Source of the DNA: Escherichia coli
GTDB lineage: Bacteria > Pseudomonadota > Gammaproteobacteria > Enterobacterales > Enterobacteriaceae
Assembly: GCF_003019035.1 (NCBI RefSeq)
Contig: NZ_CP027447.1
Reading direction: 5' to 3' (one strand)
Length of the DNA: 64,000 nucleotides
This document shows positions 1,200 to 36,556 of this stretch, in pieces. Both the position numbers and the translations under genes were made by a program. Each line of letters begins with the position of its first letter. The first letter of the stretch is position 1. Below the pieces are notes generated by a model. The model searched no databases, was not told the origin of the DNA, and saw only the letters and a program-made list of their open reading frames with translations.

Positions 1200-1230
1200 C
1201 AGAACACTTTCAATTTTTAACCACAGAACG

Positions 1231-2129: not shown

Positions 2130-2138
2130 AGGTCGGTC

Positions 2139-4283: not shown

Positions 4284-4302
4284 TTAAGAGGAGAAACGAA
4301 GT

Positions 4303-5100: not shown

Positions 5101-5101
5101 G

Positions 5102-6097: not shown

Positions 6098-6114
6098 TTT
6101 TGTGGAGAAAGTTG

Positions 6115-6456: not shown

Positions 6457-6460
6457 TATT

Positions 6461-6486
6461 AGGGGGAATTACCCCCCTTTTTTTCT
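6461..6486 (+). terminator. Rho-independent terminator after the Q-like gene
   Basis: GGGGG-AATTA-CCCCC hairpin followed by a run of 8 T; overlaps the last codons of the convergent membrane-protein gene. Confidence 0.6.
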
Positions 6487-7017
6487 CTGTTGCTTTAATA
6501 AAATTTTGATATTTTGTCTGATTATGATGAGGCAATGTAATAAAAGAAATACCGTTAGTATTGCAAGCCATACGCAAAATAAGCATGCATATAAATTAGT
6601 TGAAAGTCCAATAGTGAATTGTGCAATTGCTGTTGTGATAGAACATAATATTGATGTATTAATAAATGAGGATAAATTGTCTAAAGGTTTATAAAGTACA
6701 CTATCATTGATTTTGTCAATAGGTATACCAGTGGCAATGCTATAAATTTCCTTATATTCCTGAGTTGCAAAAACCTTATCGCGTAAATTTATTATGACAA
6801 AGGTATGCAGGCTCAATAAAAATGAGCCCACGGAAATAAAACCGGAGAAGAGATAGCCTCGTAAGTTTTTATGATAAAAATCAAAAAAGTTAACACTTAC
6901 TTTAGGTGTGTTTCTGTACAATAGGTAAAGTGCAAGCAATGCCAGGATCGAGAATGCAAGCAGTGTAAGGTACTGATACCTCAATCTTTTATTTATTAGC
7001 CATTCATATAAAGGCAT
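6469..7017 (-). CDS. Small integral membrane protein with four predicted helices, downstream gene of the two-gene moron
   Basis: 182 aa; hydrophobic segments at about residues 16-34, 45-68, 117-137 and 142-165; basic C-terminus (QQRKKGG); translationally coupled to the 308-aa gene. Confidence 0.55.
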   Translation of the reverse strand: MPLYEWLINKRLRYQYLTLLAFSILALLALYLLYRNTPKVSVNFFDFYHKNLRGYLFSGFISVGSFLLSLHTFVIINLRDKVFATQEYKEIYSIATGIPIDKINDSVLYKPLDNLSSFINTSILCSITTAIAQFTIGLSTNLYACLFCVWLAILTVFLLLHCLIIIRQNIKILLKQQRKKGG

Positions 7018-7930
7018 TTTTATTCGTCCCGTTCAGCATTTCTTCTTTTATCATATCAAAAACAGGGTTTGTTGTATAATTATCGTTTGTCAATCCATTG
7101 ACTTTATCGGCAATTATATCGAAATCGTATGTTTCAAAAAAAACAGGGCAGTTCATAAAATCAATGGTTTTTTCTATTCCTGCATGGTTTACTGCAATAA
7201 CCTGTGCTTTAGTAACTCCACTCATAGAATTATAAATATTTGAAAGATTCTGAGATAGTTGTTGCACTTTTGTTCTGTCGCTAGAATTAAAATTCATATC
7301 TATTGTGGTGGTGTTAACAAATTGTTCAAGCGCAGTCATTGGTCCACCTTTAAAATCTATATAATTAAATTTAAAGCTTGTGCTTTTAATCTCTTTGAAT
7401 TGACATAAAACACTCTGAATGTTGTTTTTATTTGTCATAAGGCTGAAAGTCAGTCTTTCTTTGTATTTTTTATTTATTGCAGTTACTTCTTTTTGTTTTG
7501 GTTTATCACCAAGTTTTTTTATTTCTTCTTTATTTTGATTTCTGATAAATTCATTACTTATTGTTTCTAAATGAGAAAAGAGAGTGTTCAGACTGCATGA
7601 ACCGTGGTGATACATATAGAGACCAGAAAGATTAGATTTTTTAATTAAGAAAAAGTTGAAATTAGCAAGTTTGTCACTTCCTTGAAGATCTTCAATTTTA
7701 AGCTGGAATTTACCATCAACAAATTGCGACTTACAGTTCTTTTTTTGGTTTCTGAATGTGACAACTAATCCATAATAGAAATCATTCACATCCGAAATGA
7801 GAATTTTACGAGTATAGTCTGTGCGACTGTGTTCTCTGTTTGATGCGTTGATAAAAGCATTCATTACGTCAACGGTATTAATATTTTTGTTATTGTTATT
7901 TATTGTAAATCCTATGCTTCTAACTTTCAT
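7004..7930 (-). CDS. Hypothetical protein, upstream gene of a two-gene moron (candidate sensor/effector partner)
   Basis: 308 aa, Asn/Lys-rich and AT-rich coding sequence; its stop overlaps the start of the downstream membrane-protein gene by 14 nt; no recognisable catalytic motif. Confidence 0.55.
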   Translation of the reverse strand: MKVRSIGFTINNNNKNINTVDVMNAFINASNREHSRTDYTRKILISDVNDFYYGLVVTFRNQKKNCKSQFVDGKFQLKIEDLQGSDKLANFNFFLIKKSNLSGLYMYHHGSCSLNTLFSHLETISNEFIRNQNKEEIKKLGDKPKQKEVTAINKKYKERLTFSLMTNKNNIQSVLCQFKEIKSTSFKFNYIDFKGGPMTALEQFVNTTTIDMNFNSSDRTKVQQLSQNLSNIYNSMSGVTKAQVIAVNHAGIEKTIDFMNCPVFFETYDFDIIADKVNGLTNDNYTTNPVFDMIKEEMLNGTNKNAFI

Positions 7931-8049
7931 GTGTATTCCAGGACCGACTAAAGATAGCGAGAATGGGGACGCATAGTTTATAAAAATCCTAACGCGTACG
8001 CAAAAAGTATTATATCGTGTTAAGAGTGGTTACTTCGCCACACAACTTA

Positions 8050-8074
8050 AACCCGCCGCTGAGCGGTTTTTTTG
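8050..8074 (+). terminator. Rho-independent terminator (tR'-like) at the start of the late region
   Basis: GC-rich hairpin (CCGC-TGA-GCGG, extended by AAAC/GTTT) followed by 7 T; an AT-rich promoter-like stretch (TATTATAT) lies ~40 bp upstream. Confidence 0.5.
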
Positions 8075-8194
8075 TACCTGTAAACCTTGTGCAGTACAGT
8101 AAACACGCTGGTGGTCGTGAATACTGGCTTTTTATCTTGCTGGCTTTTTAGACAAGAGTTATTGGTATGTCATGTTAACCAGAAGGGAAAAGAC

Positions 8195-8398
8195 ATGCTA
8201 AAACAGCAAGATATGACAGAAACCGCCGCCGCAGTCCTTCATTTCTTACCTGCTGACAAGTGGGTAACGCCACGCATGATGACGAGAACTACCGGAGTAA
8301 GCGAAGCCCGGTGCCAGTTAATACTGACTCAGTTAGTTCTGGCGGGTCTGGCGAAGGATAACGGCGGGTACGGGAATAAATTCAGACGCTGCCAGTAA
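8195..8398 (+). CDS. Small hypothetical protein (possible winged-helix DNA-binding)
   Basis: 67 aa from ATG 8195 with SD AGAAGGGAAAAG; first gene after the tR'-like terminator. Confidence 0.4.
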   Translation: MLKQQDMTETAAAVLHFLPADKWVTPRMMTRTTGVSEARCQLILTQLVLAGLAKDNGGYGNKFRRCQ

Positions 8399-8548
8399 TG
8401 GCGGTTTCCTGCTGTGAAAATGGGCGGCTGGTGGGTGTTGGTAGCACCTGCCAGCCATTCGCTCATGCTTACTGGTCACAAGCGAACCACGGCCCACTGC
8501 TTTAGCGCAAAAGCAGAGTGAGCCTACCAGAGTTACGCTTACTGATCC

Positions 8549-9601
8549 ATGAAAAATACTGTAAAAATAAACAGTGTTGATTTAATCAACGCTGATTGCC
8601 TGCATTTTATTCAGTCCCTGCCTGATGATTCCATTGACCTGATTGTTACCGATCCGCCTTACTTCAAGGTGAAACCTAACGGTTGGGACAATCAGTGGAA
8701 AGGGGACGAAGATTACCTTAAGTGGCTGGACCACTGTCTGGCCCAGTTCTGGCGGGTGTTAAAACCTGCCGGAAGCCTTTACCTGTTCTGTGGGCATCGC
8801 CTGGCATCTGATATTGAGATCATGATGCGTGAACGTTTCAACGTGCTTAACCATATCATCTGGGCGAAGCCGTCCGGACGTTGGAATGGGTGTAATAAAG
8901 AAAGTCTGCGCGCATATTTTCCTGCCACAGAGCGCGTTCTGTTTGCTGAACATTACCAGGGGCCATATCGCGGCAAAAGTGACGGCTATGCGGCAAAAGA
9001 AAGGGAACTCAAACAGCACATAATGGCACCGCTGATATCGTATTTCAGGGATGCTCGTGCCGAACTGGGTATAACGGCAAAACAAATTGCCGAAGCCACA
9101 GGTAAGAAAAATATGGTTTCCCACTGGTTTGGTGCCAGTCAGTGGCAGTTGCCGAATGAGGCTGACTATCGGAAGTTACAGGCACTGTTTTCCCGTATAG
9201 CGGCAGAGAAGTTTCAGGAACAACAACTGGAACAACCACACCACCAGCTGGTGGCATCTTATGATTCACTGAATCGCAAATATTCTGAATTGCTGGATGA
9301 GTTTAAATCTCTCCGGCGCTATTTCTCCGTATCAGTCTCCGTGCCTTATACCGATGTCTGGACGCATAAGCCCGTTCAGTTCTACCCGGGTAAACATCCG
9401 TGCGAGAAACCGGCGGATATGCTCCGGCAAATAATCAATGCCAGTAGTCGACCTGGTGATCTGGTTGCTGATTTCTTTATGGGATCCGGTTCCACAATAA
9501 AAGCAGCAATGGCGCTGGGGCGTCGGGCGTTAGGTGTTGAACTTGAGTCAGAGCGGTTTAATCAGACGGTGAAAGAGGTAAGTGAACTGGTGGGGAAATA
9601 A
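8549..9601 (+). CDS. DNA methyltransferase (N6-adenine/N4-cytosine, beta-class)
   Basis: 350 aa; catalytic DPPY motif (IVTDPPYF) near the N-terminus and AdoMet-binding FxGxG (DFFMGSGST) near the C-terminus. Confidence 0.85.
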   Translation: MKNTVKINSVDLINADCLHFIQSLPDDSIDLIVTDPPYFKVKPNGWDNQWKGDEDYLKWLDHCLAQFWRVLKPAGSLYLFCGHRLASDIEIMMRERFNVLNHIIWAKPSGRWNGCNKESLRAYFPATERVLFAEHYQGPYRGKSDGYAAKERELKQHIMAPLISYFRDARAELGITAKQIAEATGKKNMVSHWFGASQWQLPNEADYRKLQALFSRIAAEKFQEQQLEQPHHQLVASYDSLNRKYSELLDEFKSLRRYFSVSVSVPYTDVWTHKPVQFYPGKHPCEKPADMLRQIINASSRPGDLVADFFMGSGSTIKAAMALGRRALGVELESERFNQTVKEVSELVGK

Positions 9602-9677
9602 TTCTGGTGGCCACGTTGCGTGGCCTTTTTATTTCCAACACAGCACCCGCAAATATCGCGAGGTGAGAGATGACGAA

Positions 9678-10004
9678 ATGCCTCATAACCCAAATACCTG
9701 GCTGGACTTGGTCCAGAGCTGGTGGCGTGGAGACACACCGCTGGGTGCAGTGATTATGTCGATCGTTATGGCTGGTTTGCGCATCGCCTATTTTGGCGGT
9801 GGTGGTGGCTGGAAGCGAAAAACGCTCGAGATTTTGCTATGTGGCGCTCTGACGCTGACCTTTGCATCCGCTCTTGAGTATGTCGGATGGCCTAAATCAC
9901 TATCTGTTGCCATTGGTGGTGGGGTGGGGCTGATCGGTGTCGATGCTATTCGTGGGGCTGCAATGCGAGTAATCGGTAACAAGTTTGGTGGCTCTAAGGA
10001 GTAA
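9678..10004 (+). CDS. Holin
   Basis: 108 aa; hydrophobic helices with a glycine-rich central segment and charged C-terminus; directly precedes the endolysin. Confidence 0.7.
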   Translation: MPHNPNTWLDLVQSWWRGDTPLGAVIMSIVMAGLRIAYFGGGGGWKRKTLEILLCGALTLTFASALEYVGWPKSLSVAIGGGVGLIGVDAIRGAAMRVIGNKFGGSKE

Positions 10005-10007
10005 TTT

Positions 10008-10484
10008 ATGCAGGTACTAAATTCCCAGCGTAAAGCTTTCCTTGATATGGTGGCTTGGTCAGAAGGAACGGATAACGGACGACAACCGACACGTAACCAC
10101 GGTTATGACGTTATTGTCGGTGGTGAACTCTTCACTGATTACTCCGATCACCCTCGCAAACTTGTCACGCTAAACCCGAAACTCAAGTCAACAGCCGCCG
10201 GACGTTACCAGCTTCTTTCACGCTGGTGGGATGCTTACCGTAAACAGCTTGGCCTGAAAGATTTTTCTCCAGAAAGCCAGGACGCTGTAGCTTTGCAGCA
10301 GATTAAAGAGCGTGGCGCTTTACCGATGATTGACCGTGGCAATATTCGTCAGGCAATCGACCGTTGCAGCAATATCTGGGCGTCATTACCTGGTGCAGGT
10401 TACGGTCAGTATGAACATAAAATCGGTGACCTGATTGCACGGTTTGAAGAGGCTGGTGGGGTGATAAATGAAGTTGAGCTATAA
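10008..10484 (+). CDS. Endolysin, lambda R-type lytic transglycosylase
   Basis: 158 aa, near-identical in pattern to lambda R (NSQRKAFLDMVAWSEGTDNGRQ ... WASLPGAGYGQ). Confidence 0.9.
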   Translation: MQVLNSQRKAFLDMVAWSEGTDNGRQPTRNHGYDVIVGGELFTDYSDHPRKLVTLNPKLKSTAAGRYQLLSRWWDAYRKQLGLKDFSPESQDAVALQQIKERGALPMIDRGNIRQAIDRCSNIWASLPGAGYGQYEHKIGDLIARFEEAGGVINEVEL

Positions 10485-10860
10485 GCTGGTTATCGCTGCT
10501 TTCTTCGTTACTGTCATTGGTTCTTTCATCTGGTCAGCCAACCACTACTACAGCAAATATCAGTACGAAAAGAAACGTGCTGATGAGGCTGAACGAAATG
10601 CTGGATCAGCAACAGCCATTACCAATAACGTCCTGCAATCACTGCAAATCGTCAATACAGTACTGGAGGCTAACCAGCGTGCAAAACAGCAGATCGCACT
10701 GGAGTCACAAAGAACCCAGGAAGATATCAAAATGGCCGTTGCGGATGATGATTGTGCTTCACGTCTTGTGCCTGCTGCCGCTGCTGAGCGGTTGCGGAAG
10801 TATGCGGACAGTTTACGTGAACACTCCGACGGTACCACTGCCAGCCAGCCTGACGGCTGA
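10468..10860 (+). CDS. Rz-like inner-membrane spanin
   Basis: 130 aa; N-terminal transmembrane helix then coiled-coil-like region; follows the endolysin. Confidence 0.65.
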   Translation: MKLSYKLVIAAFFVTVIGSFIWSANHYYSKYQYEKKRADEAERNAGSATAITNNVLQSLQIVNTVLEANQRAKQQIALESQRTQEDIKMAVADDDCASRLVPAAAAERLRKYADSLREHSDGTTASQPDG

Positions 10861-11014
10861 AACCCCTCAGCCTGATTTACCTGATCATTTTACGTGGGGC
10901 TCGAGCTTAGATCTGAATGCCGCCTTGTTGTCTGCATTGGCGCAGTGTAATACCGATAAAGCTGACATCAGAAGGATTGAAGTTGAGCGTGGTCACATCA
11001 TGCAAAAAAAATGA
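10745..11014 (+). CDS. Rz1-like outer-membrane lipoprotein spanin
   Basis: ~89 aa in the +1 frame of Rz; lipobox LLSGC after a signal peptide; Pro-rich mature region; extends past the Rz stop. Confidence 0.6.
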   Translation: MMIVLHVLCLLPLLSGCGSMRTVYVNTPTVPLPASLTAETPQPDLPDHFTWGSSLDLNAALLSALAQCNTDKADIRRIEVERGHIMQKK

Positions 11015-11106
11015 TGTTCACTTTATTTTGTTCCTTGATTTGATATGTGATGACCCAATAGATACAAAGCACCTGATTTGGGTGATTTTTTTGAAGGACT
11101 ATACAC

Positions 11107-11427
11107 ATGAAAGACGGCATTTATTTTGTTGTGTTCAGAAGCGGTCATAATGATGTTGGCAATGGCACGGTCGTTGTGAAGGATAATGCGGTTAATGGTG
11201 GTGATTTTGGGTTTACCTATCAGGGGCGTGTACAAGATGGGGTATTGAAACTTCATGTATCCCGCCATAACCCTTCAGCACAAAACGTTATTGCAGGCCT
11301 TAACGATTATGTGATGGATCTCTCTGTGAGAGATATTGGGGATGGTTATTACCTTGAAGGTGGAATTGCTGGTGTTCCTGGTGCGACTCTGTCTGTACAG
11401 GCGAAATTTATCGGCAATTTGATTTAA
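11107..11427 (+). CDS. Hypothetical phage protein
   Basis: 106 aa ORF after the lysis cassette, followed by a terminator. Confidence 0.4.
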   Translation: MKDGIYFVVFRSGHNDVGNGTVVVKDNAVNGGDFGFTYQGRVQDGVLKLHVSRHNPSAQNVIAGLNDYVMDLSVRDIGDGYYLEGGIAGVPGATLSVQAKFIGNLI

Positions 11428-11441
11428 ATCGATTCTCTCCT

Positions 11442-11472
11442 AAACCGCCCACTTTCCACGGGCGGTTTTTTG
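11442..11472 (+). terminator. Rho-independent terminator
   Basis: CCGCCC-n9-GGGCGG hairpin followed by TTTTTTG. Confidence 0.7.
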
Positions 11473-11522
11473 TTGCCATTACGATGGGTAGACCAGTAGT
11501 AATGATTGAAGGAGAAATTTAA

Positions 11523-11873
11523 ATGCCCCCACGAACCCCAAAAGCCTGCCGTGTTCGCGGCTGCCGCCATACCACCACTGACCCGTCAGGCTATTGCGAA
11601 AGCCACAAAAGCGAAGGCTGGAAGCAATACAAACCTGGACAATCCCGTCATCAGCGCGGCTACGGTTCGAAGTGGGACAGTATCCGCGCGCGTGTCCTGA
11701 AGCGTGACAAAGGCCTGTGTCAGTTATGTCTGCGTTCTGGTGTGGTGCGTGAGGCGAAAACTGTTGACCACATCATCCCTAAAGCGCATGGCGGCACTGA
11801 TGCTGACAGTAATCTGCAGAGTCTGTGCTGGCCGTGCCATAAGGCGAAGACGACCCGTGAACGGTTAAAGTGA
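11523..11873 (+). CDS. HNH endonuclease (terminase-associated)
   Basis: 116 aa; paired Cys and His motifs (CRVRGC...C ... DHIIPKAHGG ... CWPCH); sits directly upstream of the small terminase. Confidence 0.8.
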   Translation: MPPRTPKACRVRGCRHTTTDPSGYCESHKSEGWKQYKPGQSRHQRGYGSKWDSIRARVLKRDKGLCQLCLRSGVVREAKTVDHIIPKAHGGTDADSNLQSLCWPCHKAKTTRERLK

Positions 11874-11998
11874 TAATAATTCTCAACTGTCTGAGGGGAG
11901 GGGCGGGTCAAATCCCTGTGACCTGACGTCTTCCGGACTGCCCGCCCCATCGTTTTTTTATACCCGCGAAAAATGAAATTTAACCAGGAGTGCCGCAT

Positions 11999-12493
11999 AT
12001 GGCTGGAACGACGGGGCGTTCCGGGCGTCGCCCCAAGCCAACGGCGCGCAAGGCGCTGGCCGGAAATCCCGGCAAGCGAGCCCTGAACAAAGATGAACCT
12101 GTTTTTACGCCCATCAAAGGTGTTGAGCCACCGGAGTGGTTCGCTGAAGAAGATCTCCCTCTCGCCACGATCATGTGGCAACTGACAACCAAAGAACTCT
12201 GCGGTCAGGGCCTGCTGTGCGTGACTGACCTCGCGGTGCTTGAGCGGTGGTGCGTGGCCTACGAGTTCTGGCGGCGTGCCGTGAAAAATATTGCCAGACA
12301 GGGCAACACCATCACCGGTGCAATGGGTGGCATGGTCAAAAATCCGGAGCTGACCGCCAAGAAAGAACAGGAGTCCGAGATGAGCAGCACGGGGGCAATG
12401 CTCGGACTCGACCCCAGCATCCGCCAGCGTCTGATTGGCCTGGCGGGGCAGAAGAAAGCCACTAACCCGTTTCTGAAAATCATCGAATCATGA
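11999..12493 (+). CDS. Terminase small subunit
   Basis: ~165 aa from ATG 11999 (SD AGGAG); position before the large terminase. Confidence 0.75.
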
Positions 12494-14223
12494 GCCGGAA
12501 ATCTTACCCCAACGTAAATGCTGCCAATCAGTATGCCCGGGATGTCGTGCGCGGAAAGATTGTGGCCTGCCAGTTTGTGATTCAGGCCTGCCAGCGCCAT
12601 CTTGATGACCTGATGGCGGAAAAAAGTAAGTCGTTTCGTTACCGCTTCGACAAGGACCTGGCTGAACGGGCCGCGAAATTTATTCAGCTGTTGCCACACA
12701 CCAAGGGGGAGTGGGCATTCAAGAGGATGCCCATCACGCTGGAACCGTGGCAGCTCTTTGTGATCTGCTGTGCGTTTGGCTGGGTCAATAAAGGCTCCCG
12801 GCTGCGCCGCTTCAGGGAGGTGTATACCGAAATCCCCCGTAAGAACGGCAAATCGGCAATCTCTGCCGGTGTTGCCCTGTATTGTTTTGCCTGTGATAAC
12901 GAGTTTGGCGCGGAAGTGTATTCCGGTGCCACGACAGAGAAACAGGCGTGGGAAGTCTTTCGCCCGGCGCGACTGATGTGTAAACGCACACCCATGCTGA
13001 CGGAAGCGTTCGGGATTGAGGTTAACGCCTCAAACATGAACCGTCCGGAGGATGGCGCGCGGTTTGAACCGCTGATCGGTAACCCCGGTGATGGTTCATC
13101 ACCCCACTGTGCCGTGGTGGATGAATATCACGAGCACGCCACCGATGCGCTTTATACCACGATGCTTACCGGGATGGGCGCGCGACGTCAGCCACTGATG
13201 TGGGCCATTACTACTGCCGGGTACAACATTGAGGGGCCGTGCTACGACAAGCGGCGGGAAGTTATCGAGATGCTCAACGGGTCGGTACCCAACGATGAAC
13301 TGTTCGGGATCATCTATACCGTTGATGAAGGTGACGACTGGACCGACCCGCAGGTGCTGGAAAAAGCCAATCCAAATATTGGCGTGTCGGTTTATCGCGA
13401 ATTTTTGTTAAGTCAGCAGCAGCGTGCGAAAAATAACGCCCGTCTGGCAAACGTCTTTAAAACAAAACACCTCAATATCTGGGTGTCGGCGCGTTCGGCG
13501 TATTTCAACCTGGTGAGCTGGCAGAGCTGCGAGGATAAATCACTGACCCTTGAGCAGTTCGAGGGGCAGCTGTGCATTCTGGCCTTTGACCTGGCGCGTA
13601 AGCTGGATATGAACAGCATGGCGCGACTTTATACCCGCGAGATTGACGGTAAAACGCATTACTACAGTGTGGCCCCGCGTTTCTGGGTACCGTATGACAC
13701 GGTGTACAGCGTCGAGAAAAATGAAGATCGACGGACAGCCGAACGCTTTCAGAAATGGGTGGAAATGGGCGTTCTGACCGTTACCGATGGTGCGGAGGTG
13801 GATTATCGCTATATCCTCGAGGAGGCCAAAGCGGCGAACAAAATCAGCCCGGTCAGTGAGTCACCCATCGACCCCTTCGGGGCGACCGGGTTGTCACATG
13901 ACCTTGCTGATGAAGACCTGAATCCCGTCACTATCATTCAGAACTACACCAACATGTCCGACCCGATGAAAGAGCTGGAAGCGGCAATTGAATCGGGGCG
14001 CTTTCATCATGATGGCAATCCCATCATGACCTGGTGTATCGGCAACGTGGTCGGCAAAACCATTCCGGGTAACGATGATGTGGTGAAGCCCGTCAAAGAG
14101 CAGGCGGAAAACAAAATCGATGGTGCAGTTGCGCTGATTATGGCGGTTGGCAGAGCCATGCTGTACGAGAAAGGAGACACGTTGTCTGACCACATTGAGT
14201 CCTATGGGATCCGCTCGCTTTAA
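12490..14223 (+). CDS. Terminase large subunit
   Basis: 577 aa; ATPase-like N-terminus and nuclease-like C-terminus; ATGA overlap with the small subunit. Confidence 0.9.
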
Positions 14224-14234
14224 CTGAGGTAATT

Positions 14235-14417
14235 ATGATCATGCTGATTCTCGCGCCTCTGGTGGGCGTGCTGGGGGCGCTTTTGCTGGCGTATGGTGCC
14301 TGGCTGATTTATCCCCCGGCGGGGTTTGTTGTTGCCGGGGCGTTGTGCCTGTTCTGGTCGTGGCTGGTGGCGCGATATCTTGACCGTACACAGTCGTCTG
14401 TCGGCGGAGGTAAATAG
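14235..14417 (+). CDS. Small hydrophobic protein
   Basis: 60 aa with two hydrophobic helices, between terminase and portal. Confidence 0.3.
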
Positions 14418-15658
14418 TGTTCTTTTCGGGATTATTTCAACGAAAAAGTGACGCACCGATGACCACGCCAGCAGAGCTGGCGGAGGCTATCGGGTTGTCC
14501 TACGACACCTATACCGGAAAGCAGATCAGCAGCCAGCGGGCCATGCGACTGACGGCGGTTTTTTCCTGTGTCAGGGTGCTGGCGGAGTCGGTCGGGATGT
14601 TGCCCTGCAACCTGTATCACCTGAACGGCAGCCTGAAGCAGAGAGCCACTGGCGAACGTCTGCATAAGCTGATCTCCACGCATCCCAATGGCTATATGAC
14701 GCCGCAGGAGTTCTGGGAGCTGGTGGTCACCTGTCTGTGCCTGCGGGGAAACTTTTACGCCTACAAAGTGAAAGCATTTGGCGAAGTGGCTGAACTGCTG
14801 CCCGTCGATCCCGGCTGTGTGGTACCGAAGCTTAACAGTAGCTGGGAGCCGATCTATCAGGTCACATTCCCGGATGGCTCCACGGATGTACTGAGCCAGG
14901 AGGATATCTGGCATGTGCGCACGCTGACGCTGGACGGACTGGTGGGGCTGAATCCCATCGCCTATGCCCGCGAGGCAATATCGCTGGCAGCTGCGACCGA
15001 AGAGCACGGGGCCAGACTGTTCAGCAATGGCGCGGTGACGTCGGGTGTGTTGCGTACAGAGCAGACGCTGTCAGATCAGGCTTATGAGCGCCTGAAGAAA
15101 GATTTTGAGGAGCGTCACACCGGGCTTGGCAATGCTCACCGCCCGATGATCCTTGAGATGGGGCTGGACTGGAAGTCGATGGCGCTGAACGCCGAGGACA
15201 GCCAGTTCCTGGAAACCCGCAAGTTTCAGCTTGAAGAAATCTGTCGTCTGTTCCGGGTGCCGTTGCACATGGTGCAGAACACCGATCGCGCCACCTTCAA
15301 CAATATCGAAGAGCTGGGGCTGGGATTTATCAACTATTCACTGGTGCCGTATCTGACCCGCATCGAACAGCGGATCAACACCGGACTGGTACGAAAAAGT
15401 AAGCAGGGCGTTTATTACGCCAAATTTAACGCCGGGGCGTTACTGCGCGGGGATATGAAGTCCCGTTTTGAAGCCTACGCCACCGGGATCAACTGGGGAA
15501 TTTACTCTCCCAATGACTGCCGCGACCTGGAAGATATGAATCCGCGTCCCGGTGGTGATGTCTATCTCACACCGATGAACATGACCACGAAACCCTCCGA
15601 TGGCAGTAAAGCCGGTAAGCAGAAGGATAACGCCAATGCAGACGAAACAACGTCTTGA
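14417..15658 (+). CDS. Portal protein
   Basis: 413 aa after the terminase; start may be the internal Met at ~14459. Confidence 0.85.
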   Translation: MFFSGLFQRKSDAPMTTPAELAEAIGLSYDTYTGKQISSQRAMRLTAVFSCVRVLAESVGMLPCNLYHLNGSLKQRATGERLHKLISTHPNGYMTPQEFWELVVTCLCLRGNFYAYKVKAFGEVAELLPVDPGCVVPKLNSSWEPIYQVTFPDGSTDVLSQEDIWHVRTLTLDGLVGLNPIAYAREAISLAAATEEHGARLFSNGAVTSGVLRTEQTLSDQAYERLKKDFEERHTGLGNAHRPMILEMGLDWKSMALNAEDSQFLETRKFQLEEICRLFRVPLHMVQNTDRATFNNIEELGLGFINYSLVPYLTRIEQRINTGLVRKSKQGVYYAKFNAGALLRGDMKSRFEAYATGINWGIYSPNDCRDLEDMNPRPGGDVYLTPMNMTTKPSDGSKAGKQKDNANADETTS

Positions 15659-16286
15659 TGTACCGCTGAGTCTGAAATCTGTCAGTGACTCCGGTGAGTT
15701 TGAAGGGTATGGCTCCGTCTTTGGTGTAAAGGACAGCCACGATGATGTGGTGATGTCCGGGGCATTTGCTGCTTCCCTGCGGGCGTGGAGTGACAGAAAA
15801 GCGTTACCTGCGCTGCTCTGGCAGCACCGCATGGATGAACCCATCGGTGTTTACACCGAAATGAAGGAAGACGATGTCGGGCTTTACGTCAGGGGACGGT
15901 TGCTTATTGATGATGATCCCCTCGCAAAACGCGCACATGCACACATGAAGGCCGGTTCGTTAACCGGCCTTTCTATTGGGTACGTCCTGAAAGACTGGGA
16001 ATACGACCGGAGCAAAGAAGCCTTTCTGCTGAAAGAAATCGACCTCTGGGAAGTCAGCCTGGTGACGTTCCCGTCTAACGACGAGGCGCGGATCAGCGAC
16101 GTCAAGAACGCACTGGCCCGCGGGGAAATCCCCGAACAGAAAAAAATCGAAAGAGTCCTGCGTGATGTCGGACTCTCCCGTACCCAGGCCAAAGCATTCA
16201 TGGCCGGGGGCTATGGCGCACTGTCCCTGCGCGACGCTGAGGATGTGGGCTCTGCACTGAATGCACTGAAAAATCTGAACTTCTAA
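15636..16286 (+). CDS. Prohead maturation protease
   Basis: ~216 aa between portal and capsid genes; start uncertain (15600 or 15636). Confidence 0.75.
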   Translation: MQTKQRLDVPLSLKSVSDSGEFEGYGSVFGVKDSHDDVVMSGAFAASLRAWSDRKALPALLWQHRMDEPIGVYTEMKEDDVGLYVRGRLLIDDDPLAKRAHAHMKAGSLTGLSIGYVLKDWEYDRSKEAFLLKEIDLWEVSLVTFPSNDEARISDVKNALARGEIPEQKKIERVLRDVGLSRTQAKAFMAGGYGALSLRDAEDVGSALNALKNLNF

Positions 16287-16300
16287 TCAGGAGAAATACG

Positions 16301-17506
16301 ATGGCGGTTGATATTAAAGATGTCGAACAGGTCGCGCAGGAGCTGCAGCAGAAGTTTGACGACTTCAAAGCAAAGAACGACAAGCGCGTGGATGCGATTG
16401 AGCAGGAAAAAGGCAAGCTTGCCGGGCAGGTGGAAACCCTGAACGGGAAACTCAGCGAGCTGGAAAATCTCAAAAGCGACCTTGAAAAAGAGCTGCTTGA
16501 GCTGAAACGTCCGGCTGGTGGAGCGCAAAATAAACTGGCCACCGAGCATAAAGAGGCGTTTGTGGGCTTCCTGCGTAAAGGCCGTGAAGACGGTCTGCGC
16601 GATCTGGAGCGTAAGGCATTGCAGGTGGGTACCGATGAAGACGGTGGCTACGCCGTGCCGGAAGAACTGGATCGCAACATTCTTAACCTGCTGAAAGATG
16701 AAGTGGTGATGCGTCAGGAAGCCACGGTGATCACCGTTGGCGGTTCCGACTACAAAAAACTGGTGAATCTGGGCGGTACGGCTTCCGGATGGGTGGGGGA
16801 AACGGATACGCGATCCCAGACTGCCACCTCCAGACTGGAGCTGATTGAACCTCTCATGGGGGAAATCTACGGCAACCCGCAGGCTACCCAGAAAATGCTG
16901 GACGATGCCTTCTTCAACGTGGAGGCCTGGATCAACAGCGAGCTGGCAACCGAATTTGCCGAACAGGAAGAAATTGCCTTTACCTCAGGCGATGGCACCA
17001 AGAAGCCGAAAGGGTTCCTGGCGTATGAATCCACTGATGAAACCGACAAGGTCCGGGCGTTCGGCAAACTTCAGCATATTGTATCTGGCGAAGCGACCGC
17101 GGTGACCGCAGACGCCATTATCAAACTGATTTACACGCTGCGTAAGGCACACCGCACTGGCGCGAAGTTCATGATGAACAACAACAGCCTGTTTACCATC
17201 CGTCTGCTGAAAGACACCGAGGGTAACTATCTGTGGCGTCCGGGGCTGGAACTGGGGCAGCCGTCCTCTCTGGCGGGTTACGGTATCGCTGAAAACGAAC
17301 AGATGCCGGATATCGCCGCTGATGCGAAAGCCATTGCATTTGGTAACTTCAAACGGGGTTACACCATCGTTGACCGTATCGGTACCCGCATTCTTCGCGA
17401 TCCGTACACCAATAAACCGTTTGTCGGTTTTTATACCACCAAGCGCACCGGCGGCATGCTGGTCGATTCGCAGGCCATCAAACTGCTGAAGATTGCTGCG
17501 GCGTAA
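16301..17506 (+). CDS. Major capsid protein (HK97 fold family)
   Basis: 401 aa; N-terminal coiled-coil scaffold-like delta region followed by capsid core; canonical position. Confidence 0.9.
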   Translation: MAVDIKDVEQVAQELQQKFDDFKAKNDKRVDAIEQEKGKLAGQVETLNGKLSELENLKSDLEKELLELKRPAGGAQNKLATEHKEAFVGFLRKGREDGLRDLERKALQVGTDEDGGYAVPEELDRNILNLLKDEVVMRQEATVITVGGSDYKKLVNLGGTASGWVGETDTRSQTATSRLELIEPLMGEIYGNPQATQKMLDDAFFNVEAWINSELATEFAEQEEIAFTSGDGTKKPKGFLAYESTDETDKVRAFGKLQHIVSGEATAVTADAIIKLIYTLRKAHRTGAKFMMNNNSLFTIRLLKDTEGNYLWRPGLELGQPSSLAGYGIAENEQMPDIAADAKAIAFGNFKRGYTIVDRIGTRILRDPYTNKPFVGFYTTKRTGGMLVDSQAIKLLKIAAA

Positions 17507-17512
17507 TCACTC

Positions 17513-17534
17513 AGGGGCGCGGAACCGCGCCCCC
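17513..17534 (+). terminator. GC-rich stem-loop after the capsid gene (possible attenuator)
   Basis: GGGGCGC-GGAACC-GCGCCCC immediately after the capsid stop; no strong T-run. Confidence 0.35.
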
Positions 17535-17555
17535 TGTTCTGACGGGTGAAGAATC

Positions 17556-17756
17556 ATGATCCTGAAACAAGATCTGAAATGGTCACCGGACGGTATGCGT
17601 GTTGAGGTCATTCGGGCCGGTGAGTATGACGACGGGGCGCTTCCTGCCCGGGTGCAGGAGATTGCACTTCAGGCCGGGTTAGCAGAGCGCGGAACCAGTG
17701 CAAAAAGCAGTAAAGCGACAAAAGAGAAAAAAGCCACGACCAGTAAAGAGGGCTGA
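17556..17756 (+). CDS. Small hypothetical head-module protein
   Basis: 66 aa ORF between capsid and connector genes. Confidence 0.3.
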   Translation: MILKQDLKWSPDGMRVEVIRAGEYDDGALPARVQEIALQAGLAERGTSAKSSKATKEKKATTSKEG

Positions 17757-17758
17757 GT

Positions 17759-18082
17759 ATGCTTCTGACAATGGAAGAGATTAAAGCCCAACTCCGGCTG
17801 GATGAGGATTTCGATGCTGATGACCGTCATCTGCAACTGCTGGCCTGTGCGGCGCAAAAGCGGACGGAAACGTATCTGAACCGGAAGCTCTATGCTCCGG
17901 ATGAAACCATTCCGGACAGCGATCCGGACGGGCTGCACCTGCCGGATGATATTCGTCTGGGGATGCTGATGCTTATCAGCCATTTTTACGAAAATCGCTC
18001 GTCGGTTACGGAAGTGGAGAAACTCGACATGCCGCAGAGTTTTGGCTGGCTTGTCGGCCCGTACAGGTACTTTCCGCAATGA
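17759..18082 (+). CDS. Head-tail connector / DNA-packaging protein (gp6-like)
   Basis: 107 aa, canonical position after the capsid gene. Confidence 0.55.
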   Translation: MLLTMEEIKAQLRLDEDFDADDRHLQLLACAAQKRTETYLNRKLYAPDETIPDSDPDGLHLPDDIRLGMLMLISHFYENRSSVTEVEKLDMPQSFGWLVGPYRYFPQ

Positions 18083-18489
18083 AAATTCGTCAGGCGCAGA
18101 CCAGCGCAACCTACATTCTGCCGGACCCCGGTGAACTGAATAAACGCGTCCTGATCCGCCTGCGGGTGGATATGCCCGCGGATAACTTTGGCGTGGAGCC
18201 TCAATACCCGGTTACGTTCCGGACATGGGCGAAGGTTATCCAGACCAGTGCCACCACCTGGCAGGAAACCGCGCAGACCGGGGACGCCATCACCCATTAC
18301 ATCACCATTCGTTACCGCCGGGGGATCACCGCTGATTATGAGGTGGTCTGCGGTGACAGTGTGTACCGGGTGAAACGTCAGCGCGATCTGAACGGGGCGC
18401 GGCGCTTTCTGCTGCTGGAGTGTACGGAGCTGGGCGAATGTAGGCAGAGTCACGGAGGCAACAATGACGACTTCCTTTTTGCACGTTGA
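18079..18489 (+). CDS. Head closure / head-tail adaptor protein
   Basis: 136 aa, overlapping gene chain in the head-tail joining module. Confidence 0.5.
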   Translation: MKIRQAQTSATYILPDPGELNKRVLIRLRVDMPADNFGVEPQYPVTFRTWAKVIQTSATTWQETAQTGDAITHYITIRYRRGITADYEVVCGDSVYRVKRQRDLNGARRFLLLECTELGECRQSHGGNNDDFLFAR

Positions 18490-29512: not shown

Positions 29513-29953
29513 ATGAATTACATATATTCCGCGACTACAAACTCTTTCTATCCGCTGGAGATGAAAGAGGATTACACTCAAGCTGACTCATGGCCAGATG
29601 ATGCTGTTGAAGTTGATGAGCAAGTGTATATTGCGTTTTCCGGATTACCGCCGAAAGGAAAAATCCGTATCGCTGGAGAAAATGGTTTTCCTGCATGGTC
29701 TGAAATTCCACCGCCAACACATGAGGAACAGATTGCTGCAGCCGAACAGGAAAAGCAGCAACTGATTAATCAGGCCAACGATTATATGAACAGTAAACAA
29801 TGGCCTGGTAAAGCGGCTATTGGTCGTCTGAAAGGTGAGGAACTGGCGCAATATAATTTGTGGCTGGATTATCTGGACGCACTGGAACTGGTCGATACTT
29901 CCGGTGCGCCAGATATTGAATGGCCTACGCCTCCGGCAGTTCAGGCCAGATGA
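29513..29953 (+). CDS. Tail fibre assembly protein (Tfa)
   Basis: 146 aa; C-terminal ELVDTSGAPDIEWPTPP resembles the conserved Tfa C-terminus. Confidence 0.75.
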   Translation: MNYIYSATTNSFYPLEMKEDYTQADSWPDDAVEVDEQVYIAFSGLPPKGKIRIAGENGFPAWSEIPPPTHEEQIAAAEQEKQQLINQANDYMNSKQWPGKAAIGRLKGEELAQYNLWLDYLDALELVDTSGAPDIEWPTPPAVQAR

Positions 29954-30514
29954 CATCCGGCGCGGTGCTGGTATCTGTTGCCGTCACCGCGTCAATGTAA
30001 TCCAGCACGGCGTTTAGTCGGGTGGTTTCTGTTTGCGTCAGCTTCCGTCCGGCCTGCAATTTCAGTTGAATAAGACTAATGGACGCCATTGCAGCATTAA
30101 TCAGCGACTGGCGCTGTGTTTCTGCCGCTTCTACTGCAGCACCGTGCTGTGCCTCAGTATCTGTCACCCATTTTTCCCATCCATTTATCGTATGGCGTTA
30201 ACGGTGAAAGCGTGACATAACCGTCTTTGATGGCACCGATATAATCCACTGTAACGGCAGCGCCATTTTCGGTTGAGTAAACAGTCTCATGGCGATGGTC
30301 TTCTTCATGGTGCCATCCTTCCCGTAAATACTGCCACTTTCCCCGAAATGTTTTCGCCCGGGTCAATATAAGTGGAACAAGCGGGCATACTTACACCAGT
30401 ATTAATATATTCATCAGACCAACCCGTATATTCATACGTTACTGTATCATAATAAAAACAACGCATATCACCCGGTACTGTAGCCAGCCCATTTTCATCA
30501 AAAACAGGTTTCAT
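29925..30514 (-). pseudogene. Alternative tail fibre assembly gene (tfa') in the invertible segment, disrupted by two frameshifts
   Basis: Three overlapping minus-strand frames (30514..30305, 30366..30154, 30167..29925) carry the N-terminal (FDENG), middle (EDHRHETVY...YDKWMG) and C-terminal (TDTSTAPDVIWPELP) parts of a Tfa-like protein. Confidence 0.55.
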
Positions 30515-30722
30515 TATTTAGCCCTCACCAGAAAGTTAAATGCGATGTTACGTGGCCTGACGGCAATAAAATTCACACCATCACCCACTGAATTACTGGT
30601 GTAATGGTATCGAGAGAAACCCGGCTCGTGTGCTGATATTCCATCGTGATTAGCAATCGAATGGCCGGAGCCCTCTGGATAATTACCTCCAAATTGCGAT
30701 AAAGATGTTGCTGCCTGCCAGC

Positions 30723-30958
30723 TTAATAATGCTCGCCACTATCCACCCCGCACCCATCATCCCAGATACGAATGAAATCACCCCGTGCGTCAGGTAATAC
30801 CAGCGACGGAAACACTTTCGCCAGCACAGGGTAATCAGTGGCAGAAAATTTCGCTCCGTTGAACTTCAAAAACACCATACCGGACCAGCTGTTGATTACG
30901 GTATTTGGCATTGCAGCGGAGGGCCAGAAGAACGGAACTCCAATAGCCGGAGCACCTT
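30723..30958 (-). CDS. Alternative tail-fibre variable C-terminal segment (Sv'), possibly truncated
   Basis: Minus-strand frame whose N-terminus crosses the right crossover site with the same LGLGE junction residues as the plus-strand fibre gene; ends ~200 nt before tfa'. Confidence 0.45.
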
Positions 30959-30968
30959 CTCCCAAACC
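30949..30968. repeat. Invertase crossover site, right (inverted copy)
   Basis: CTTCTCCCAAACCAACGTTT, inverted repeat of the left site; ~70 bp upstream of pin. Confidence 0.7.
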
Positions 30969-31036
30969 AACGTTTATGAAAATGCAGAAATAACGAGCAA
31001 ATGGCATCATTCCTGCTTTTGTCAGGGAGATCTACC

Positions 31037-31591
31037 ATGCTTATTGGCTATGTACGTGTGTCAACAAATGACCAGAACACAGATCTACAACGTAATGCGC
31101 TGAACTGTGCAGGATGCGAGCTGATTTTTGAAGACAAGATAAGCGGTACAAAGTCCGAAAGGCCGGGACTGAAAAAACTGCTCAGGACATTATCGGCAGG
31201 TGACACTCTGGTTGTCTGGAAGCTGGATCGGCTAGGGCGTAGTATGCGGCATCTGGTCATTCTGGTTGAGGAGTTGCGCGAACGTGGCGTTAATTTTCGC
31301 AGCCTGACGGATGCTATTGATACCAGCACACCGATGGGGCGTTTTTTCTTTCATGTGATGGGTGCCCTGGCTGAAATGGAACGAGAACTGATTGTTGAAC
31401 GAACAAAAGCTGGACTGGAAGCTGCTCGCGCACAGGGACGAATTGGTGGACGTCGTCCCAAACTTACACCAGAACAATGGGCGCAGGCCGGGCGATTAAT
31501 TGCATCAGGCGTTCCTCGCCAGAAGGTGGCGATCATCTATGATGTTGGTATATCGACACTGTATAAGAAGTTTCCGGTCGGAGATAAATGA
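31037..31591 (+). CDS. pin: Site-specific DNA invertase Pin (serine recombinase, Hin/Gin/Pin family)
   Basis: ~184 aa from MLIGYVRVSTNDQ; near-identical in pattern to e14 Pin (catalytic Ser in YVRVST; C-terminal HTH). Confidence 0.9.
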   Translation: MLIGYVRVSTNDQNTDLQRNALNCAGCELIFEDKISGTKSERPGLKKLLRTLSAGDTLVVWKLDRLGRSMRHLVILVEELRERGVNFRSLTDAIDTSTPMGRFFFHVMGALAEMERELIVERTKAGLEAARAQGRIGGRRPKLTPEQWAQAGRLIASGVPRQKVAIIYDVGISTLYKKFPVGDK

Positions 31592-31629
31592 AACCGTAGC
31601 ACGTCGTATGCAAGATCGTGCTGCGGTTT
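31591..31629. repeat. Hairpin repeat copy A (AAACCGTAGCACG-n13-CGTGCTGCGGTTT)
   Basis: 13-bp inverted repeat with one mismatch, directly after the pin stop; core shared with copies at 32609..32720 and 37170..37270. Confidence 0.6.
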
Positions 31630-31648
31630 ATGCTTATCACTTAAAGAC

Positions 31649-32518
<870 letters not shown>

Positions 32519-32608
32519 CTAATCCTTTGAATTTACATAGTAAAAAAGATACTTTTCCTCATAGTGTGAGCTAATTTTATGTTTCGTTTGATGATCGGAC
32601 CGGTCTCA

Positions 32609-32720
32609 AAAACCGCAGGCACGTTGTATGCAAGAACGTGCTGTGGCTGGCTGGTGAACTTCCAATAGTGCGAATATTGAATGATTTCTATCTGTTATAG
32701 ATTTTACCGTATTTCGGCAT
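32609..32720. repeat. Repeat copy B (~110 bp) of a dispersed element
   Basis: Shares the core CCGCAGGCACGTTGTATGCAAGAACGTGCTG and the downstream GGCTGGTGAACTTCCAATAGTGCGAATATTGAATGATTTC with copy C (~70% identity by eye). Confidence 0.55.
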
Positions 32721-32981
32721 GAATGAAACTGAATATCCTCCCACCGATTCTCCATGACTTTACGCCACTGTCTCTAGGGCTGCTATGTGCCAGAGGCGGA
32801 CGTTGTTAAAATAGAAAATATCCCAACCTTGTATGAGTCGTGCAATAATTTCGAACTTTATACAAAGCTTTGGTTGTAAAGGTGTATAACCACAAGTGAC
32901 ATTAATCACATTTGTAAAGGCAAAATGCAACAAACTGAATTAGTTAATTGCGTAAATTTGAAGTTATGTTAAGGTGGTGAT

Positions 32982-33114
32982 GGTTTATGGGCAGATTTTG
33001 GGTCGCGTTTCGCGATCAGTGAAAAAAATGTCCGATAGGATTGCCTTTCAGGATCTCATGTTCCTCGCATTTCTTAAGGTTCTTGTCAAGTTTGCGTAAG
33101 AGTGCCCATAAACC
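32982..33114 (+). ncRNA. Candidate retron msr/msd non-coding RNA flanked by inverted repeats a1/a2
   Basis: 12-bp perfect inverted repeats GGTTTATGGGCA (32982..32993) and TGCCCATAAACC (33103..33114) bracket 109 nt; a G follows a1; small hairpin TCGCG-TTT-CGCGA at 33003..33015; ends 20 bp before the RT start. Confidence 0.4.
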
Positions 33115-33133
33115 CTTTTAGAGGCGATCTAAA

Positions 33134-34969
33134 GTGAAACGACTACAATCATTAAAAGAAGCAAAAACAAAACCAGACTTGGCTAAGCTATTAGGAATCA
33201 AACCTTCAGCGTTAACATACTGCCTATATGTATTAAAACCTGAAAATCAATACACACAGTTTAAGATACCAAAAAAAAATGGCGGCGAACGGATAATAAG
33301 TGCACCTAACGGAATATTAAAGACGATACAGTCATCCTTATCAAGACTGCTTCTAGATTGCTTAGACGAAATAGTTTGCATTAAGTTTCCAGACTCAGAG
33401 TTAGCAAGGCAGAAAGCAAAAAACTCAAAAATATTAAAGTTAAAATGTTCCAACTCAGAAATCAAACAACCCTCACTGTCTCATGGATTTGAAAGAAAGC
33501 GTTCAATTATTACAAATGCAATGATGCACTTGGGGAAAAAATATGTTTTTAATATAGACTTGGATAATTTTTTCGGCAGTTTTAACTTTGGTAGAGTCCG
33601 AGGTTTTTTCATAAAAAATAGAAACTTTGCACTCGATCCGGAAATCGCAACTGTAATTGCTAAAATTGCGTGCTACAACAATGAACTACCCCAAGGCAGC
33701 CCATGCTCCCCAGTAATCACTAATCTAATCACTCACTCGTTAGACATTAAACTGGCAGCGATTGCATCAAGAAACTCATCCACTTTTACAAGATATGCTG
33801 ATGATATTACATTCTCTACGAGGAAGGGGGAGTTTCCTTCTGCTATAGCAAAAAATCAAAATGGTAAATATATCGTTAGTAAGAAAATTAGGGGCGAGAT
33901 AACTCGCTCAGGTTTTATAATTAATGATGGGAAGACAAGAAATCAGTATAAAGACTCGAGGCAAGATGTAACAGGCTTAGTGGTTAATAAAAAGCCAAAC
34001 ACGAAAAAAGAATATTGGAGGCTTGTGCGTGCGCAATGTGACCATTTATTTAAACATGGTGAGTTCTTAGAGGTGATTGACGGCAAGGAAATAAAGGGGA
34101 ATGTTAATACCCTTGCAGGCAAACTTAACTTCATAGACCAAGTTGACCACTATAATAGATTGCGTCAAGGCGAAAAATTAAATCCAAAATATCACTTAAA
34201 AAAAGATGCCAATAAAAATGGCCATGCCAAAAAAAGGCGTTACTTACATAGTTCTAGAGAAAAAACGTTTAGTGAGTTTCTCTTCTATCGTTTATTTTAT
34301 GGCAATGAATTACCAACAATTCTTACGGAAGGTAAAACTGACAATATTTATCTGAAGGCAGCAATACATAAGTTAGCCTCATCATTCCCTAATTTGGCGG
34401 TCGCTGAAAGTCCAGGGCTCTCTTATAAGCCACGGACTAAATTTGTTAACTACAATGAGCGGACAAAATATTTACTTGAACTTTATGGTGGTGCTGATTA
34501 TTTAAAGGATTTTGTTATTCATTATAAACAACACTTTAATCGTTATAAGGCTCCCAAACCATCTAATCCAGTAATTATACTTGTTGATAATGATAGCGGA
34601 CCAAAAGATCTGATTAATTACGTTAGTAAAGTTGATAATATTGGTATTTTCCCCACAGGTGTTCCAGATATCCGCGCCTCTGAGTTTGTACATATTTTTT
34701 GTAATCTTTATTTAGTGCTTACCCCTCAAGTTAAGGGATATACAGGAACTGATATAGAGCATTTTTTTAAAGATGCAGATCGACTTAGACCACATAAAGG
34801 TAAGTTTTTCAATACAGTCTCTAAGCGTGATCATGATAATGATTTGAGCAAGGAATCTTTCGCAACTCATATTGTTCATGCCCACAAGCATGAAATTGAT
34901 TTTAGTGGATTTACAAGCCTGTTAGAACGGTTAGTAAAAGTCATAAATCACTTTGACACTGTTAAGTAA
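33134..34969 (+). CDS. Retron-type reverse transcriptase fused to a C-terminal Toprim-like domain
   Basis: 611 aa (GTG start). RT motifs: IPKKNGGER, NAMMH (retron NAxxH), FNIDLDNFF (A), LPQGSPCSPVITNL (B), YADD (C), VTGLVVN (retron VTG); core resembles retron Ec86 RT as recalled. C-terminus carries acidic motifs ILTEGKTD and IILVDND. Confidence 0.8.
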   Translation: MKRLQSLKEAKTKPDLAKLLGIKPSALTYCLYVLKPENQYTQFKIPKKNGGERIISAPNGILKTIQSSLSRLLLDCLDEIVCIKFPDSELARQKAKNSKILKLKCSNSEIKQPSLSHGFERKRSIITNAMMHLGKKYVFNIDLDNFFGSFNFGRVRGFFIKNRNFALDPEIATVIAKIACYNNELPQGSPCSPVITNLITHSLDIKLAAIASRNSSTFTRYADDITFSTRKGEFPSAIAKNQNGKYIVSKKIRGEITRSGFIINDGKTRNQYKDSRQDVTGLVVNKKPNTKKEYWRLVRAQCDHLFKHGEFLEVIDGKEIKGNVNTLAGKLNFIDQVDHYNRLRQGEKLNPKYHLKKDANKNGHAKKRRYLHSSREKTFSEFLFYRLFYGNELPTILTEGKTDNIYLKAAIHKLASSFPNLAVAESPGLSYKPRTKFVNYNERTKYLLELYGGADYLKDFVIHYKQHFNRYKAPKPSNPVIILVDNDSGPKDLINYVSKVDNIGIFPTGVPDIRASEFVHIFCNLYLVLTPQVKGYTGTDIEHFFKDADRLRPHKGKFFNTVSKRDHDNDLSKESFATHIVHAHKHEIDFSGFTSLLERLVKVINHFDTVK

Positions 34970-35298
34970 TATTATGATGCGCACTGATTATTCCTTATTC
35001 AGCTAAAATTTCTACTGTAGTCCCAACTTCCGTTCCTCGCTCATAACAGACATTCACTACAGTTATGGTAGAAGGTATGCATGCTGGGTGGGGAAAGTAT
35101 GAAGGAAAAGAAGACTGCTGCGCCGTTTGTTGTCACATTTATCTTCATTGGCTATGCAAGTCGTAATACAAGGTGGGACAAAACTGAGACACATAAGGCC
35201 TCGCAATGACTTGCAAGGCTTTACATGTTTTGATGTGGTGGGACGTGTGAGCGCAGTGTTGATGGGGTAATGCTTTGAATTAGAAGCGGATTCTTATA

Positions 35299-35343
35299 AT
35301 TCGTAATGCGAAGGTCGTAGGTTCGACTCCTATTATCGGCACC
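35299..35343 (+). other. Partial tRNA-Thr 3' end (thrW-like pseudo-tRNA), prophage attR core
   Basis: ATTCGTAATGCGAAGGTCGTAGGTTCGACTCCTATTATCGGCACCA matches the anticodon-stem-to-CCA portion of E. coli tRNA-Thr(CGU) as recalled; no matching 5' acceptor strand upstream. Confidence 0.75.
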
Positions 35344-35941
35344 ATTTAAATCAATAAGTTATCTCACATTTAAGTAAACTACGTTCTCCTCTTGTGCCTT
35401 TGATTTTGCTCGCGTGCGCGGTGAAATGCCTGACTGAAAGGTGAGCATATCGACGAACCATTTCGAGAGTTTCCCATCTGCTCATTTTTAAGTGCAAGCA
35501 GGAAAACACCGGACTAAACCAATCAGCTGTTCGAAAATGGCAAGCGGATTAATATGCCATGGCGGGGCAGCTTTGAGCCGCACGCATGGGGTGTGGCAAG
35601 CCTGATGGATTTTGCTGTGCCTGTGGTGGCGTGTTTGCTGGTTTGGCTGTTGGTTAAACGCGAAAGTCATAATGCCAGGGGAATACCGCAGGGTGTTCAG
35701 GTTTTGCATAAAAAAGCCCACCATTAAGGTGGGCAAAAGGAATGATTTATATTCTCTGAGAGAAACATTACATTTCTCCTTGTCACTTCTAACATAAAAA
35801 TATGGAGAAATAATGGAGCTTATATTAATTGGCGATTAGGTAACCATGTGGTTATACAAAACAATACAGTTCTTTACATTTGCCTTGTTTTATGAATACT
35901 CCTGAAGAGGTGTACAACATAATTAAACAAACAGGGTAAAT

Positions 35942-36556
35942 ATGAATATATTTGAACAAACTCCACCGAACCGCAGACGTTATGGTCTTGCTGCATTCAT
36001 TGGGCTGATTGCTGGCGTTGTTTCCGCATTTGTGAAGTGGGGGGCTGAAGTTCCATTGCCGCCACGTAGCCCGGTGGATATGTTTAATGCAGCGTGTGGT
36101 CCGGAATCATTAATCAGGGCTGCTGGGCAAATTGATTGCTCCCGTAATTTTCTCAATCCTCCGTATATTTTTCTTCGAGACTGGCTGGGGCTGACAGATC
36201 CCAATGCGGCTGTTTATACCTTTGCCGGGCATGTCTTTAACTGGGTTGGTGTTACGCACATTATCTTTTCGATAGTGTTTGCTGTCGGTTATTGTGTGGT
36301 CGCTGAAGTATTTCCAAAAATTAAACTCTGGCAGGGCTTACTGGCAGGTGCTTTAGCCCAACTTTTTGTTCATATGATTTCATTCCCTCTCATGGGACTG
36401 ACGCCACCTCTGTTTGATCTCCCGTGGTATGAGAATGTTTCTGAAATTTTTGGACATTTAGTCTGGTTCTGGTCCATTGAAATTATTCGCAGAGATTTAC
36501 GAAACAGAATTACTCATGAGCCAGACCCTGAGATCCCTTTAGGCTCAAACAGATAA
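35942..36556 (+). CDS. yagU: Inner membrane protein YagU (DUF1440)
   Basis: 204 aa, multi-helix membrane protein; recognised as the E. coli YagU sequence. Confidence 0.85.

Follow-up and report, generated by a model that had tools for sequence, protein, structure and literature searches.

Several temperate phages of enteric bacteria have their attR in the tRNA-Thr gene thrW, among them SfI, SfII, SfV and SfX of Shigella, together with P22 of Salmonella. For SfI, the attachment sites attP, attB, attL and attR were determined via PCR and sequencing, revealing a core of 46 bases that is given as identical in SfII, SfV, SfX and P22, with attP sited between the cargo genes and int-xis (PMC3636060). 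The SfII genome runs in the order tail genes, oac, IS, gtrII-gtrB-gtrA, attP, int, xis and early genes, with its core at 24835-24880. In E. coli K-12, the same 46-nt core is present twice, once in thrW and once at the right end of the cryptic prophage CP4-6, where it forms the thrW pseudo-tRNA, 'ptwF' (K-12 297209-297254). In prophages, defence genes are known to occupy fixed cargo slots. Retron-Eco2 (Ec67), the closest described counterpart of a retron discussed below, is reported to have been originally described on a P2/186-like element.

Here we analyzed a 64-kb stretch of E. coli DNA (the window) that begins inside a prophage and contains half of a thrW-type tRNA. With high confidence, we identify this half-tRNA as the attR core of an SfV/SfII-like temperate phage, predicted to be about 39 kb long from comparison with its relatives, which integrated in thrW via a tyrosine integrase. 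The att site is already known, as its core has been published for this phage group, and the junction is an ordinary attR. The features of the locus are collected in Table 1.

Table 1 Features of the window at and around the attR junction.
Feature	Coordinates	Strand	Basis or remark
Part of the prophage within the window, SfV/SfII-like	1..35298	+	Lambdoid early region, late genes, invertible tail fibre, cargo
PD-T4-3, LEM-3-like GIY-YIG nuclease, anti-phage gene	31649..32473	-	PADLOC E 2.7e-140; Pfam PF22945
Candidate retron msr/msd non-coding RNA	32982..33114	+	Inverted repeat and predicted fold
Retron type I-C RT-Toprim fusion, Ec67 family	33134..34969	+	PADLOC RT-Toprim_I-C E 4.8e-222
P arm of attR (phage side)	35029..35298	+	Kept between prophages with different cargo
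att core, attR copy of the thrW tRNA-Thr(CGU) 3′ part	35299..35344	+	Alignment, motif search
17 extra bases TTTAAATCAATAAGTTA common to SfII attP and the chromosomal site	35345..35361	+	Alignment
Fossil of a tyrosine-integrase C-terminus, KMSRWETLEMVRRYAHLSVRHFTAHASKI, 29 codons	35402..35488	-	tblastn
yagU, first intact chromosomal gene past attR	35942..36556	+	ATG at 35942

A 3′-only thrW fragment of 46 nucleotides

Alignment of the window with the annotated 76-nt tRNA-Thr of MS6198 and K-12 revealed that thrW positions 31-76 are identical to 35299-35344. The sequence of this segment on the plus strand, ATTCGTAATGCGAAGGTCGTAGGTTCGACTCCTATTATCGGCACCA, equals the core reported for SfI base for base (PMC3636060). 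The 46 nt cover the last base of the 5′ anticodon stem, the CGT anticodon loop, the 3′ stem strand and the variable loop, followed by the T arm, the acceptor 3′ strand and the CCA end. The preliminary description had proposed a 45-nt match to tRNA-Thr(CGU) at 35299-35343 with no matching 5′ half. The match is real, although its given end leaves out one base, the terminal A at 35344, and the lack of a 5′ half was borne out by a search with the 30-nt 5′ part of thrW, which was not found anywhere in the 64-kb window at ≤3 mismatches.

No tRNA gene was detected by ARAGORN in the 64 kb, and Rfam returned no match within 32300-36000, even at E ≤ 1. Together with the absence of the thrW 5′ part, these empty searches define the segment as a half-tRNA, and a complete cloverleaf with acceptor and D arms is not formed by 35299-35344. 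A degenerate whole tRNA gene was ruled out by the missing 5′ 30 nt and by the lack of any Rfam match at this permissive threshold. The core was matched only once across the window when up to 3 mismatches were permitted, and in none of 100 dinucleotide-preserving shuffled controls, which rules out a chance match. The segment is thus confirmed as an exact 3′-only fragment of thrW.

SfII attP and the chromosomal site remain identical for 17 nt beyond the CCA end, to 35361, so that the full repeat is 63 nt long. This unbroken attP/attB identity (35299-35361) stops where the stop codon of the SfII int gene starts.

Phage DNA reaches the core from the left

The prophage occupies the window up to the core. 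Its early region, the first 11 kb, is lambdoid and starts from a cI-like LexA-family repressor (234-908, minus strand); this region is a different lambdoid mosaic from those of SfI, SfII, SfV and SfX. The late genes, from terminase to tail fibre, are located at 11523-29953 and are SfV/SfII-like with a Mu-type baseplate. All of the major late ORFs listed are open, and those compared are as long as the corresponding SfII ORFs: terminase (167 and 577 aa), portal (413 aa), capsid (401 aa), sheath (498 aa), tape measure (611 aa) and the baseplate proteins (456, 359, 182, 142, 352 and 194 aa). This late-gene backbone is shared with the Shigella flexneri phages, as window 11523-35361 is ~97-98% identical to SfII, SfI, SfIV and SfV, with the matches stopping at attP. 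Downstream of the late genes, a Pin-family serine invertase (31001-31591) adjoins opposed ORFs for a tail fibre and a tail-fibre assembly protein, and the stretch 29513-31591 resembles the host-range switches of Mu and e14.

Next to the core, the P arm is conserved in two comparisons. The ~125 bp at 35174-35298 are 96.8% identical to the SfII attP arm, directly abutting the core in the same register, and collinearity between the window prophage and SfII continues until SfII position 24897. In addition, 35029-35400 are 97.6% identical to the end of the prophage in LR-62-2, whose cargo genes differ. The identity of the P arm to both SfII attP and LR-62-2 reaches the core, indicating that the phage DNA is unbroken into the core.

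The chromosome resumes at the core

To the right, the window was compared with MS6198, a prophage-free strain in which the unoccupied site reads proB-proA-tRNA-Thr-(pseudo-integrase)-yagU-ykgJ-ecpE. A single 28.7-kb alignment with 98.5% identity covers 35299-64000 and begins at tRNA position 31, and 35299-36000 are 100% identical. The chromosome therefore resumes at the core itself, at 35299. An earlier estimate had placed its return only ~600 bp past the core; this does not hold, since prophage-free strains have the 597 bp that precede yagU as part of their chromosome. The gene past the junction, yagU in E. coli, differs from that in Shigella, where it is yaiC. Between yagU and ykgJ, an Rfam match to the IS009 small-RNA family was detected at 36562-36763 (plus strand, 191.7 bits).

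With phage DNA on its left and collinear prophage-free chromosome on its right, 35299-35344 is assigned as attR. The proposal in the preliminary description of an attR formed by integration into thrW is accordingly supported by three elements: an SfII-like P arm on the left, the published core, and the DNA of the unoccupied MS6198 site on the right.

A fossil integrase beside the site

Within these 597 bp and a short distance past the core, tblastn identified a fossil of 29 codons derived from a tyrosine-integrase C-terminus, which is 59% identical over 29 aa to residues 336-364 of SfII Int and retains the catalytic-Tyr motif RRYAHL. RefSeq annotates a pseudo-integrase at the fossil position in MS6198, beside an intact thrW. 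Two sources of the fossil were considered and rejected. Derivation from K-12 intF is contradicted by the lack of any similarity between intF and the fossil. The fossil could also have been part of the present prophage, in which case the site would be an uncut attP, but the same fragment follows the intact thrW of prophage-free MS6198. The unoccupied site thus already bears an integrase fossil, which points to repeated use of thrW; judging from sequence similarity, an older element with a related integrase probably resided in the gene.

Comparison with K-12 and the missing yagP-pao genes

The right end of CP4-6 lies at the same locus and carries the same 46-nt thrW 3′ fragment. K-12 DNA to the right of the CP4-6 relic core is 89% identical to window 35299-35398, and the likeness at this level includes ~54 nt downstream of the fragment. 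CP4-6 itself is decayed, is unrelated to the prophage studied here and has another integrase (intF). The two loci also diverge past the fragment, where K-12 has yagP-paoDCBA and the window has 382 bp (35399-35780) that include the integrase fossil. Homology to K-12 returns only 161 bp ahead of the yagU start, at window position 35781.

The K-12 genes yagP and paoDCBA (~5.5 kb) have no counterpart in the whole window, in agreement with the earlier observation that the genes lying between the thrW pseudo-tRNA and yagU in K-12 are absent here. The same yagP-pao gap is found in MS6198. Since this strain lacks the prophage, the absence of the pao genes represents a lineage polymorphism and not an effect of the prophage. 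In other strains, the same prophage end with the retron is followed directly by yagP/pao.

Relatives with both prophage ends at thrW

As the window begins inside the prophage, the far end was examined in three related prophages, those of LR-62-2, EP91B and 19SZHZ886Rt. All three carry tRNA-Thr, int and a xis-like HTH gene beside proA, and share with the Shigella phages the layout proA-thrW-int ... cargo-attR. The expectation in the preliminary description of an intact tRNA and an integrase at the other prophage end thus holds in each of these relatives. LR-62-2 has the same attR-fossil-yagU junction as the window (99.6% identity), and its far end reads HTH (xis-like), tyrosine integrase, tRNA-Thr, proA. 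The far end of EP91B has the same order, and its early region is 98.3% identical to that of the window; its retron end is 100% identical over 33300-35361 and 98.8% identical over 30957-35361. The closest early region was found in 19SZHZ886Rt (98.4%), which has the same late genes, and in which tRNA-Thr and the integrase are located 3.5 kb before the point aligned to window base 1. The 63-nt repeat is present at attL with 100% identity in LR-62-2 and 19SZHZ886Rt, and with one mismatch in EP91B. By analogy, thrW is expected to be intact ~3.5 kb to the left of window base 1, together with int and xis.

Among 5,426 complete RefSeq E. coli genomes, no record covered ≥80% of a query combining retron, attR, fossil and yagU. 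The junction of arm, core and fossil was present with other cargo in 13 of the complete E. coli genomes searched. A further arrangement was observed in 2018-05-5CC, where the thrW core recurs internally, without an annotated tRNA (L002 8031-8076), between two tandem thrW prophages; the int gene adjoining this internal core is frameshifted.

Proposed integration and alternative explanations

We propose a pathway analogous to that of other tyrosine integrases. The phage attP, lying between the cargo slot and int, would carry the 3′ 46 nt of thrW and 17 downstream bases, and would undergo site-specific recombination with the tRNA gene inside the shared identity. At attL, on the proA side and beside int and xis, the phage copy of the core would thereby be joined to the thrW 5′ part of the chromosome, where the phage-borne 3′ part would keep the tRNA gene whole. 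The original chromosomal 3′ part would be displaced to attR, without a 5′ half, behind the last phage gene. From what is generally known of Int and Xis, excision would proceed by recombination of the two 63-nt repeats.

The junction could instead be a relic from an earlier element, of the kind seen at the right end of K-12 CP4-6, with the present prophage merely abutting the core. Such a relic, built on the same 46-nt core, does exist in K-12; the integrase fossil beside the site speaks for earlier use of thrW; and tandem elements at thrW are known, as shown by the core copy between the two prophages of 2018-05-5CC. However, the match of 35174-35298 to the SfII attP arm (96.8%) runs up to a core in the same register without a break, and in the SfII phage genome, too, no gap separates this arm from the core. 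Furthermore, of 10 other contigs that encode this retron, 8 have the core exactly 330 nt past the RT stop, which is also the spacing in the window (34969 to 35299). The constant spacing between RT stop and core, and the contiguous arm, indicate that arm, core and cargo belong together as one phage end, and a relic junction is extremely improbable.

Doubt could also be directed at the element itself, which would be a decayed and immobile remnant if its left end (attL and int) had been lost or rearranged and thrW truncated. The left end is located outside the window, and one relative, 2018-05-5CC, has a frameshifted int. Yet the listed major late genes are open, with SfII lengths where compared, and the early region is collinear with that of intact relatives that retain int and thrW. 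We consider a decayed remnant very unlikely, and favor integration of an SfV/SfII-like phage in thrW as the origin of the half-tRNA.

Defence cargo beside attR

The cargo genes of the prophage are located at 31649-34969, between the invertase and attR. This slot holds gtrABC in the Shigella phages, whereas the window prophage has PD-T4-3 and a type I-C retron. The match of the retron protein to the PADLOC RT-Toprim_I-C model spans residues 1-609, with a reverse transcriptase fused to a Toprim nuclease domain, in agreement with the RefSeq name given to the protein in relatives, and its gene is the last before attR.

A perfect 12-nt inverted repeat, GGTTTATGGGCA / TGCCCATAAACC (32982-32993 / 33103-33114), flanks 109 nt upstream of the RT gene. 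In the predicted fold of the whole segment, the repeat forms the closing stem (dG -43.3 kcal/mol, z -2.5), without an Rfam match. The segment stops 20 nt short of the RT start and, based on this model, is a candidate for the retron msr/msd. The RT-Toprim fusion, with its full-length PADLOC match, is a feature in common with Retron-Eco2 (Ec67), and the upstream segment bounded by inverted repeats would be a second one. The settings differ: the retron here lies in an SfV-like lambdoid prophage, in the cargo slot nearest attR, as opposed to the reported P2/186-like element of Ec67.

In the cargo region, 90 nt (32618-32707) are 79% identical to 37174-37263 in the chromosomal ykgJ-ecpE intergenic region of the window, and 80% identical to the K-12 copy of this intergenic sequence. 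The edge of this 90-nt sequence coincides with a mosaic breakpoint, at 32714, relative to the prophage of LR-62-2.

The public collection lists a protein identical to this RT in 435 blocks. At the ten of these locations that were read, its gene is located at the attR-proximal end, on at least three phage backbones, and is paired with PD-T4-3 or GmrSD; yagU was directly downstream of the identical RT in none of these ten contigs. This distribution is suggestive of the carriage of defence genes in fixed prophage cargo slots. There is an even chance, in our estimate, that the invertase-attP slot of the thrW phages is an exchangeable cargo site, taking up either gtrABC, as in the Shigella phages, or anti-phage genes, as in the window prophage and numerous E. 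coli strains, and that the retron and the attP arm form one module, carried on at least three backbones and always positioned 330 nt before the core.

Implications

The right boundary of the prophage is fixed to the base, while its left boundary and the location of the integrase are predicted. For annotators, the half-tRNA is a junction scar and no gene. Beyond an att site that was already known, the locus adds that the pao genes were already missing before the prophage arrived, that thrW appears to have been used repeatedly, and that two defence systems replace the serotype-conversion genes.
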